Below, piece after piece: positions 31,808-35,255 of a stretch of DNA of 64,000 nt. Made by a program: the position numbers and the translations under genes. The DNA is taken from assembly GCF_003018255.1 (NCBI RefSeq), contig NZ_CP027440.1; one strand, 5' to 3'. A model generated the notes under the pieces. The model saw only the letters and a program-made list of their open reading frames with translations, was not told the DNA's origin and did no database searches. The stretch comes from Escherichia coli. Lineage in GTDB: Bacteria > Pseudomonadota > Gammaproteobacteria > Enterobacterales > Enterobacteriaceae. How positions within the stretch are numbered: the stretch's first letter is position 1; every line of letters begins with the position of its first letter.

Positions 31808-32067
31808 GGTGTTTCCTCACCTTGCTCTTCCTGCTGGTGATAAACCAGCGACACCGCCAGCACGCCCTCTACGTTGCGTACTGACTCAATGGTTTGAATC
31901 AGCGTTTCGCTGTCTTCTGCTTCCACCACCACAATCAACTGACCGCTCGGCGCGTCGCTGACAGCAACTTCACAGCCGGGAAAGGCGTTCAGTTGGGTGC
32001 TGATGTCTGAAATTCGTTCGCTTTTGGCCTGCACGACCAGGCTGCAAACTTGCCAGTTAGTGTGCAT
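31804..32067 (-). CDS. napD: NapA maturation chaperone NapD
   Basis: 87 aa; overlaps napA start. Confidence 0.9.
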
Positions 32068-32551
32068 GGAGATACTCCGCAGTTATGGCTGATACCGGAC
32101 AGCTGGCTGCACATGCTCCACATCCGTTGCAAAGTTGGCTATTAAGTTGCGGCTGGTAGATCCCGGAGAGCGTCGGGCGAAAGATAATTGCCATTGGCTC
32201 ACAGCTATCCTGACAGCGGCGGCATTCAACTGACTGATACGCCAGGCACGCCTCCCCGATGGTGAACAGCAAATCCCAGGCCCTGGTGTGGCGCGGAGAA
32301 AATAGCGATTCGGGGCAAGCCTGCGCGCAGGCGTAACAGAAGCTGCACTCGTTATTTTTGAAATTAACGCTCGGATAGCCACCCGCGCCGCGTTGCAGAA
32401 TGTTGTTTTCACAAGCATTAATACAGGCGTCGCAGCGAGTGCAATGGGTCAGAAAATGAGATTCATCACCGGACCAGGGCGGACGGATACCGTTACTGGC
32501 TTTGCGCCAGCGACCAGTGAGTATGCCCCGACGGGATGCATCAATCTTCAC
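32057..32551 (-). CDS. napF: ferredoxin-type protein NapF
   Basis: 164 aa with several 4Fe-4S Cys motifs; first gene of nap operon. Confidence 0.9.
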   Translation of the reverse strand: MKIDASRRGILTGRWRKASNGIRPPWSGDESHFLTHCTRCDACINACENNILQRGAGGYPSVNFKNNECSFCYACAQACPESLFSPRHTRAWDLLFTIGEACLAYQSVECRRCQDSCEPMAIIFRPTLSGIYQPQLNSQLCNGCGACAASCPVSAITAEYLHAH

Positions 32552-32659
32552 ATTGACCTTCCATCATTAACGCGCTCTGAAAATTGAGAGCGACCAAATA
32601 AACCGCATAATTAATAAGCCATTTTTATAGCCGCTAAGATATTAAAGGATGTGTCAAAG

Positions 32660-32824
32660 ATGCATACCCCGATCGGGGTAAAACCTGTAGCAGGATCAAA
32701 AGAGTGGCAGGAAGCGTGGCAAAAACGGGCTTTTGCTCACATTTCAAATGGTTATAAACATATTTATATAGCGATTAATTCGCCAGAGATATTTCTGCTG
32801 GTTTGTTTTCTCATCAGAATTTAA
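32660..32824 (+). CDS. yojO: small ORF (54 codons) in napF-eco intergenic region; coding status uncertain
   Basis: ATG at 32660 preceded by AAGGA; translation MHTPIGVKPVAGSKEWQEAWQKRAFAHISNGYKHIYIAINSPEIFLLVCFLIRI; I recall a 54-aa yojO annotated here in K-12; ORF overlaps the NarP/FNR sites. Confidence 0.35.
   Translation: MHTPIGVKPVAGSKEWQEAWQKRAFAHISNGYKHIYIAINSPEIFLLVCFLIRI
32665..32680. promoter_or_regulatory. NarP/NarL 7-2-7 heptamer pair in napF promoter
   Basis: Perfect palindrome TACCCCG-AT-CGGGGTA about 115 bp upstream of napF start codon. Confidence 0.75.
32686..32699. promoter_or_regulatory. FNR-like site in napF promoter
   Basis: TGTAG-N4-ATCAA (one consensus half-site TTGAT on the napF strand), centred 20 bp upstream of the NarP site centre. 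Confidence 0.55.
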
Positions 32825-32958
32825 CACTAAAAGAGCAGGTAAAATTATCTGAATGTTCTTTAAGTTATTCATAAAGCAAATTAATAAATCTGATGAATAT
32901 GTTAACCTTCAGCGACATCATCGGTGAAAACCTATAAATGAAGAAGGAAAGCAAAAAA

Positions 32959-33447
32959 ATGAAGACCATTCTACCTGCAGTATTGTTTGCCGCTTTCGCC
33001 ACCACTTCCGCCTGGGCGGCAGAAAGCGTCCAGCCACTGGAAAAAATCGCACCTTATCCACAAGCTGAAAAAGGCATGAAGCGCCAGGTGATTCAGTTAA
33101 CCCCGCAAGAAGATGAATCTACCCTGAAAGTAGAACTGTTAATCGGCCAGACGCTGGAAGTCGATTGCAATTTGCATCGTCTCGGCGGGAAGCTGGAAAG
33201 CAAAACGCTGGAAGGCTGGGGCTATGATTATTATGTCTTTGATAAAGTCAGTTCCCCGGTTTCGACGATGATGGCCTGCCCGGATGGCAAGAAAGAGAAG
33301 AAATTTGTCACCGCGTATCTGGGCGATGCCGGAATGCTGCGTTATAACAGCAAGCTGCCGATCGTGGTGTATACGCCAGACAATGTAGATGTGAAGTACC
33401 GCGTCTGGAAGGCGGAAGAGAAAATTGACAACGCGGTAGTTCGCTAA
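32959..33447 (+). CDS. eco: ecotin, periplasmic serine protease inhibitor
   Basis: ORF track 32938-33447; ATG at 32959 ([20 protein letters not shown]) gives 162 aa. Confidence 0.95.
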
Positions 33448-33461
33448 ACTGCTGTGAAGTG

Positions 33462-33592
33462 CTGCAACCGCCAGGTCGGATAAGGCGGTTACGCCGCATC
33501 CGACATCTAACGCCCGAGCCGGTTGCCTGATGCGACGCTGACGCGTCTTATCTGCATACGCCACATCCGGCATACCATGCCGGATGTGGCAC
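33462..33592. repeat. cluster of REP palindromes (BIME-like) between convergent eco and mqo
   Basis: gtcggataaggcg...cgccgcatccgac; tgcctgatgcgacgctgacgcgtcttatc; ccacatccggcat...atgccggatgtgg. Confidence 0.7.
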
Positions 33593-33596
33593 ATCA

Positions 33597-35255
<1,659 letters not shown>

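Follow-up and report, generated by a model that had tools for sequence, protein, structure and literature searches.

The control region of napF, the first gene of the periplasmic nitrate reductase operon, has been described in Escherichia coli K-12 (aeg-46.5) by the Stewart and Gunsalus laboratories. According to the published work, FNR and phospho-NarP activate napF together, with NarL as a competitor for the same site, and this control is preserved on a fragment from −85 to +19; IscR represses napF. The 7-2-7 site of napF lies at −40 to −49 (PMC4549865), ModE activates the gene (PMC8139620), and a chromatin immunoprecipitation sequencing (ChIP-seq) peak of FNR was assigned to it (PMC3688515). 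On the opposite strand, K-12 is annotated with the small open reading frame (ORF) yojO (b4604), which appears in the list of annotated small proteins of Fesenko et al. 2024 as a genus-specific cluster with a predicted transmembrane segment (PMC11188072). Here we analyzed yojO in a stretch of 64,000 nt from E. coli (contig NZ_CP027440.1; in the following called the window, to which all positions refer). In the window, the ORF consists of 54 codons plus stop on the plus strand, from the ATG at 32660 to the TAA at 32822–32824, with the product MHTPIGVKPVAGSKEWQEAWQKRAFAHISNGYKHIYIAINSPEIFLLVCFLIRI.

With a probability of about 80%, we consider yojO a chance, lineage-restricted open frame over the napF promoter that was annotated as a gene. 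Most likely, there is no real small-protein gene at this locus and its annotation is an artefact. In this explanation, the sequence would be held by functions at the DNA level, namely the napF core promoter, the NarP/NarL site at ~−44.5, the FNR site at ~−64.5, a conserved block at ~−110 and the ModE site at ~−133.5. These conserved blocks would happen to be stop-free in the yojO frame; in the E. coli lineage, the unconstrained DNA separating them would by coincidence lack stops as well, yielding the combined ORF. The frame would be fortuitous and evolutionarily young, and the peptide would not be under selection and most likely functionless. Should there be a plus-strand transcript on which ribosomes load now and then, the product would be a by-product.

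RefSeq annotates the identical coordinates as “hypothetical protein” WP_001561685.1 in strain DETEC-S792 (100% identical), and the same ORF as “yojO: protein YojO” in K-12-like strains including MG1655. In K-12, it lies at 2303614–2303778 of NC_000913.3, on the plus strand. The ORF of the window has the same length as the common K-12-type YojO and shares 51/54 residues with it (94%); because of the three substitutions R17Q, Y34H and S50F, RefSeq lists it as a hypothetical protein instead of YojO. All YojO homologs found were tagged with PF28594. The ORF is this strain's allele of yojO (b4604), and the 54-codon plus-strand ORF at 32660–32824 that had been named yojO from the sequence alone is thereby confirmed. 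Its length is within chance expectation: in a spacer with a G+C content of 35%, an ORF of at least 54 codons from an ATG occurred in 919 of 5000 dinucleotide-preserving shuffles (18%) of the 407 bp between napF and eco.

Frame retention and codon positions in yojO

To compare the frame among relatives, we aligned the spacer from 11 sources: the window, a K-12-like strain, E. coli MFDS1006657, L004 (the genome in our collection for a divergent lineage deposited as E. coli), E. albertii, E. marmotae, Escherichia sp. E1130, Salmonella enterica, Citrobacter amalonaticus, C. youngae and Leclercia. A search of genome contigs for NapF yielded at least seven enterobacterial loci among the matches listed, and the loci of E. 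marmotae, E1130, Salmonella and C. amalonaticus were obtained via exact-protein look-ups. Locus L029, from a frameshift-ridden assembly, was left out.

The yojO frame is interrupted by a stop at codon 18 in MFDS1006657, at codon 21 in both E. albertii and L004, at codon 34 in E. marmotae, at codon 22 in C. amalonaticus and at codon 17 in C. youngae. In Salmonella, it is open for 43 codons and then closed, and in Escherichia sp. E1130 it stays open over the full length, with a different C-terminus. All first stops lie in unconserved stretches, between binding sites or in the center of the ModE palindrome. Those of MFDS1006657, L004, E. albertii, C. amalonaticus and C. youngae fall within 32707–32728, an unconstrained spacer (ORF codons 17–23) in which just 1/22 columns is invariant across the three genera Escherichia, Salmonella and Citrobacter. 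In E. albertii and L004, the stop is a CAA to TAA change at codon 21 (window 32720), with all binding sites intact. The alignment of these three genera thus shows a blocky conservation, in which the binding sites are kept while the spacer and the tail of the ORF vary. The sequence-only reading had named, as evidence that would speak against a coding function, frame-disrupting changes in close relatives that retain the NarP and FNR sites, and this is what we found.

To judge how far DNA with binding sites keeps frames open, the minus strand served as a control. At 32634–32760, it contains a 41-codon stop-free stretch over the same sites in all seven Escherichia lineages, which nobody has annotated. 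A minus-strand stop-free stretch of 43–45 codons is present in another frame in Salmonella and C. youngae.

Frame retention in yojO fits the neutral pattern. We simulated neutral evolution by placing the observed number of differences as random substitutions, and obtained probabilities of 0.21, 0.26, 0.20, 0.12 and 0.09 for an open frame in the five lineages that are not of the coli type. Hence, 0.9 open frames were expected among these five and one was observed.

The distribution of variable sites over codon positions 1/2/3 showed no sign of coding constraint. Among the seven Escherichia lineages, we counted 24/24/24 variable sites in yojO, compared to 8/7/52 in napF and 8/1/62 in eco (Fisher P = 2e-12). 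Within E. coli, in a sample of 13 yojO alleles and ten napF and eco sequences, the numbers were 6/6/5 in yojO, 2/1/13 in napF and 2/1/17 in eco (P = 3e-4). The respective pN/pS values (non-synonymous over synonymous differences per site) were 0.50, 0.13 and 0.04, and ten amino-acid positions varied among the 13 yojO alleles. Between and beyond the binding sites, the evolution of yojO is neutral or faster. The small protein entangled with anaerobic and nitrate control of napF, one of two options in the sequence-only reading, is therefore unsupported, given the lack of a coding signature and the closed frames in relatives; the same two lines of evidence favor its other option, the annotation artefact.

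The 3′ third of the ORF, encoding the hydrophobic tail (32776–32824), is hypervariable, with 16/49 columns invariant within Escherichia and 5/49 across genera. The slightly longer segment 32776–32830 differs from the window by 31–46% among Escherichia lineages, compared to 4–21% at third codon positions in the two neighboring genes, napF and eco. A segment that outpaces nearby synonymous sites suggests recombination mosaicism or a local mutational hotspot.

Within E. coli, the 701-bp piece around the ORF, which is 100% identical to DETEC-S792, was found in 5421 of 5426 complete genomes. The ORF is intact in the large majority of E. coli genomes; at a divergence here of at most 5%, this is expected without selection. 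Nonsense changes make up 5.2% of the possible substitutions, and among the 17 segregating sites 0.85 were expected and none was seen. Three independent indels in natural lineages swap out the hydrophobic tail. The pyrimidine tract at 32806–32811 has acquired independent +1 and −1 indels: the +1 C allele occurs in 11 complete genomes, including E. coli W, KO11FL, LY180 and AQ15, with the AQ15 copy called a pseudogene by the NCBI pipeline PGAP, and the −1 allele yields a 63-aa product in one Shiga-toxin E. coli (STEC) lineage (316 contigs). A +1 T allele with a 71-aa product occurs in Shigella flexneri (95 contigs). Within the locus, constraint is lowest on the hydrophobic C-terminus.

A separate observation concerns E. 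coli MFDS1006657 (L027), which encodes standard NapF and ecotin proteins and yet has a spacer allele diverged by 27% across the ORF. This allele was found in no other of the 5421 complete E. coli genomes, with the next best match less than 80% identical. Judged by its sequence, it resembles a short imported segment that does not extend beyond the regulatory region. Its NarP palindrome is intact, and the left half of the FNR site and the putative plus-strand −10 element are altered.

Database searches placed yojO in the same narrow range. HMMER, run exhaustively against 1.84 billion representative proteins, returned only variants of the yojO ORF and one spurious match to a repetitive protein. 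A word-indexed protein search gave 69 clusters, of which all named ones belonged to Escherichia or Shigella. By these searches, the YojO family is an orphan with homologs limited to Escherichia and Shigella. The local Pfam copy gave no match for the yojO product because PF28594 is newer than this copy; NCBIfam returned nothing beyond a meaningless match at E = 0.1, and no relative was found among PDB sequences. In the literature searched on yojO/b4604, no report of translation, product detection, expression, function or phenotype was found; the mentions were confined to gene lists, tables from systematic evolution of ligands by exponential enrichment (SELEX) and a codon-bias table, and the readable ribosome-profiling supplements contained no YojO expression data.

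The napF control region beneath the ORF

The local gene order is napA, napD and napF (32057–32551) on the minus strand, followed after a 407-bp spacer by eco (ecotin; 32959–33447) and mqo on the plus strand. The eco ATG lies 134 nt past the yojO stop. The arrangement napF-ORF-eco is identical in DETEC-S792, HS30-1 and MG1655, and the position of the ORF, divergent from napF and upstream of eco, is as noted from the sequence alone.

The first element overlapped by the ORF is the NarP/NarL 7-2-7 site, the perfect 16-bp palindrome TACCCCGATCGGGGTA (TACCCCG-AT-CGGGGTA) at 32665–32680, centered at 32672.5 or ~−44.5 of napF P1. Either half fits the NarL/NarP heptamer TACYYMT at 6/7 positions. The site is invariant in 15/16 columns in Escherichia and in 13/16 across the three genera. 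The palindrome noted from the sequence alone is correct. The ORF had been described as starting inside the NarP site; its ATG indeed precedes the palindrome by 5 nt, but the start adjoins the site rather than lying in it. The right heptamer (window 32676) reads CGAGGTA instead of CGGGGTA in E. coli O157:H7 (L031), E. albertii (L003) and Salmonella (L028), which means that a perfect palindrome is not found throughout. In O157:H7, this substitution also leads to Gly6Glu in the yojO ORF.

The FNR site TGTAGCAGGATCAA (TTGATCCTGCTACA on the napF strand) follows within the ORF at 32686–32699. It is centered at 32692.5, ~−64.5 of napF P1 and 20 bp, or two helical turns, upstream of the NarP center. 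Compared to TTGATNNNNATCAA, the 14-mer agrees at 7/10 specified positions and contains one perfect half-site; matches of equal quality number 347 in the window, with ~238 expected. The half-site with its flank, GGATCAAAAGAGTG (32693–32706), is invariant in 12/14 columns across the three genera. The FNR-like site noted from the sequence alone lies where it had been placed. The NarP and FNR sites are credible because of their geometry, their conservation across genera and the literature, and not because of motif scores.

Beyond the unconstrained codons 17–23 follows the conserved block GCTTTTGCTCACATTTCAA at 32729–32747, ~−110 of napF P1, with 13/19 columns invariant across Escherichia, Salmonella and Citrobacter. 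Overlapping this block, TTTCAAATGGTTA (32742–32754) is one mismatch away from what we take to be the core motif of the integration host factor (IHF), WATCAANNNNTTR. Next comes the ModE-type palindrome ATGGTTATAAA-N6-TATATAGCGAT at 32748–32775, centered at 32761.5 and 89 bp upstream of the NarP palindrome. Its arms are conserved across genera in the spacer alignment, and scans for tandem and inverted repeats yielded nothing beyond an arm of this palindrome.

The center of the NarP palindrome at −44.5 places the napF P1 start at 32628. From this geometry, start 32628 and the −10 hexamer TATCTT (32641 to 32636, minus strand) are the likely promoter elements. The sequence TAAGATATT in the −10 area is invariant in all 11 aligned sequences. 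With this start, the FNR center falls at −64.5 and the center of the ModE palindrome at −133.5. These are the positions that Darwin et al. in 1998 and McNicholas and Gunsalus in 2002 reportedly gave for FNR and ModE at napF. The match of both to a single start is consistent with the assignment and serves as a consistency check. The FNR ChIP-seq peak presumably falls on the FNR site of the window as well, after coordinate conversion for the offset between genome versions.

The region is the known napF (aeg-46.5) control region and nothing different in kind. Both the ORF and the napF regulatory sites are already in databases. The partial conservation that has brought yojO a gene name and a Pfam family is fully explained by what the ORF overlaps, namely the napF core promoter and its sites for NarP/NarL, FNR and ModE. 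A scan of the napF-eco spacer for the type-2 motif of IscR gave no match, nor did Rfam at a permissive threshold (searched over 32300–33700) in this spacer. In a metagenome-assembled genome of Leclercia adecarboxylata (L009, 2167–2243), a tRNA-Arg(tct) lies upstream of napF in place of eco, and the NarP-FNR module is retained. Downstream of eco in the window, a repetitive extragenic palindromic (REP)-type element at 33474–33556 matches Rfam naRNA4 (RF02564) with 57.3 bits, compared to a gathering score of 59.5.

Start signals, plus-strand promoters and rival explanations

The AAGGA motif at 32645–32649 resembles a Shine-Dalgarno sequence, with a gap of 10 nt to the ATG. It had been taken as a plausible ribosome-binding site; the motif is present, but it is part of the napF promoter spacer (~−17 to −21 of P1) and conserved where the ORF is closed. 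The ATG itself lies at ~−32 to −34, in the −35 region of napF and beside a class II-type NarP site. The surroundings of the motif, AGGATGTGT, are conserved in Salmonella and Citrobacter, as is the ATG block in the spacer alignment. ATG and AAGGA are conserved because they lie inside the −35 region and the promoter spacer of napF. An alternative in-frame GTG start at 32651–32653, chosen in some annotations (P0024, P0049) and in the table of Fesenko et al., would yield a 57-aa version. We rejected it as the true start, since a GTG just 1 nt beyond AAGGA makes a poor initiation site. In the predicted fold of a hypothetical plus-strand mRNA, the AUG is paired with the GUGU directly after AAGGA, and the NarP palindrome forms a hairpin of −9.6 kcal/mol at +6 to +21. 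The predicted fold of the 61-nt initiation region surpasses those of 196/200 shuffles. Such a structured initiation region suggests that translation would be initiated poorly.

The hydrophobic C-terminus noted from the sequence exists; however, its longest unbroken hydrophobic run comprises only nine residues (IFLLVCFLI), in the least conserved part of the spacer, which is frameshifted in several lineages. A membrane span takes about 18–20 residues; the maximum Kyte-Doolittle value over 19 residues is 1.79, for a segment that includes N, S, P and E. The codon adaptation index of yojO is 0.595, within the range of spurious small ORFs, and all 30 long ORFs of the window used as reference have higher values (0.631–0.785). 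Rare codons are ATA (twice) and AGA. AlphaFold2, run on the single sequence, returned two generic helices with a mean predicted local distance difference test score (pLDDT) of 70 and a predicted template modeling score (pTM) of 0.32, which is uninformative for an orphan 54-mer.

On the plus strand, a sigma-70 promoter-like element, TTGAGA-16-CATAAT, lies at 32584–32611 inside the napF 5′ leader, with CATAAT at 32606–32611 and a predicted start at ~32618–32620. Shimada et al. 2014 propose the same hexamers TTGAGA/CATAAT for yojO. The −35 hexamer TTGAGA is kept in E. coli and E1130 and not conserved in E. albertii, E. marmotae and L004, and a promoter scan of the region gave two sites compared to 1.3 expected by chance. 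For eco, Shimada et al. 2014 propose GCGACA-15-TATAAA (32912–32938, plus strand), which is conserved within Escherichia. A weaker plus-strand element, TTAACA-16-AATTAT (9/12; 32821–32848), starts at the yojO stop and precedes the proposed eco promoter. The plus strand showed no terminator-like site from the ORF to eco. The idea that yojO is an eco leader peptide or upstream ORF was rejected, with a gap of 134 nt, no terminator and eco's own promoter-like element in the gap.

Several findings weigh against an artefact. A coding sequence was called at the locus in 59 of 60 evenly sampled genomes (of 5421), and frameshifted or replaced alleles were found in only ~25 complete genomes. The pN/pS of yojO is 0.5 and not 1, a value that comes from very few sites and is confounded by the constraint on binding-site DNA. 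AAGGA stands at a usable, though long, distance from the ATG, Pfam has a YojO family (PF28594), and the pipeline of Fesenko et al. 2024 (PMC11188072) labels YojO as transmembrane. In addition, TTGAGA-16-CATAAT, on the yojO strand 49 nt ahead of the ATG, fits the consensus at 10/12 positions, and binding of RNA polymerase holoenzyme to the spacer was seen in vitro (SELEX; Shimada et al. 2014).

Two rival explanations were considered. In the first, which we regard as unlikely, the plus-strand transcription unit matters and the peptide is incidental. The unit would either compete with napF P1 for RNA polymerase, at times when FNR and NarP are inactive, or provide a long-leader eco transcript. Competition agrees with the layout, as the element is located inside the napF leader and its predicted start at ~32618–32620 faces the napF start at ~32628; with starts ~10 bp apart and facing each other, both promoters could not be occupied together. 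Moreover, the spacer is among the constitutive sigma-70 binding sites listed by Shimada et al., and the sole consensus-like promoter proposed there points to yojO. The lack of a detected plus-strand terminator-like site between the ORF and eco would allow a long leader, but downstream of the ORF eco is preceded by a conserved promoter-like element of its own. The −35 hexamer of the upstream element is not conserved in other Escherichia species, and the promoter scan gave two sites with 1.3 expected by chance.

Less probable is that yojO is a real, very young de novo gene of E. coli and Shigella, encoding a small, possibly membrane-associated protein expressed from the plus-strand promoter in the napF leader. 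As NarP and FNR bind within the first 14 codons, its expression would be inversely coupled to that of napF. The ORF is open in more than 99% of the sampled E. coli genomes, and only in E. coli proper does the open frame coincide with good −35 (TTGAGA) and −10 (CATAAT) hexamers. The 10/12 promoter-like element, the binding of RNA polymerase holoenzyme in vitro and an AAGGA 10 nt from the ATG would provide for expression. However, frame retention equals the neutral expectation, and even within E. coli there is no third-position excess (6/6/5), with ten variable residues among the 13 alleles. For a membrane association, one may cite the Kyte-Doolittle maximum of 1.79, the transmembrane label by Fesenko et al. 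and the two generic helices from AlphaFold (mean pLDDT 70). Against it, the hydrophobic run has just nine residues, and the tail is the most variable part, frameshifted in E. coli W, STEC and S. flexneri lineages. The codon adaptation index under that of all reference genes, the initiation region predicted to be structured and the lack of an expression report in the literature searched add to the points against a gene. If this applied, the locus would lend itself conveniently as a model for how genes emerge de novo within promoters.

Marginally less probable again is early de novo gene birth, in which, in the E. coli lineage, a stop-free frame built from transcription factor-binding blocks acquired a sigma-70 promoter within the napF leader; a small hydrophobic peptide would then be expressed when FNR and NarP are off the first codons, so that oxygen and nitrate would act on it in the opposite sense to napF, and a regulatory region would double as coding sequence.

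Comparison with known systems

The chance open frame remains the preferred explanation. Its significance beyond annotation hygiene is small, and the useful result is a negative one. It also calls for caution with catalogs of small proteins in which a sequence conserved within a single genus counts as coding.

Compared to yojO of K-12 (b4604, “uncharacterized protein YojO”, PF28594), for which no functional or expression data were found in the literature searched, the ORF of the window has the same locus, length and divergent orientation and differs by three substitutions. The same holds for the regulatory DNA beneath it: as in the K-12 napF (aeg-46.5) control region, the palindrome, the FNR half-site and the ModE-type palindrome of the window fit one start.

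Validated small membrane proteins of E. coli (e.g., Hemm et al. 2008) are of a similar size class and also carry a hydrophobic C-terminus. These proteins have a full transmembrane helix, their ORFs are conserved across enteric genera and their products have been detected. In contrast, yojO has a run of nine hydrophobic residues, a frame that is closed in sister species and a tail that is frameshifted within E. coli.

A further comparison is with spurious or unselected small ORFs in enterobacterial annotations, namely the intergenic ones surveyed by Fesenko et al. 2024 (PMC11188072), which, like yojO, are AT-rich, genus-restricted, hydrophobic-leaning and domainless. Unlike these, yojO has a gene name and a Pfam family and overlaps experimentally defined transcription-factor sites, and this overlap accounts for its partial sequence conservation. 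The locus is a worked example of conserved regulatory DNA passing for a conserved small gene.

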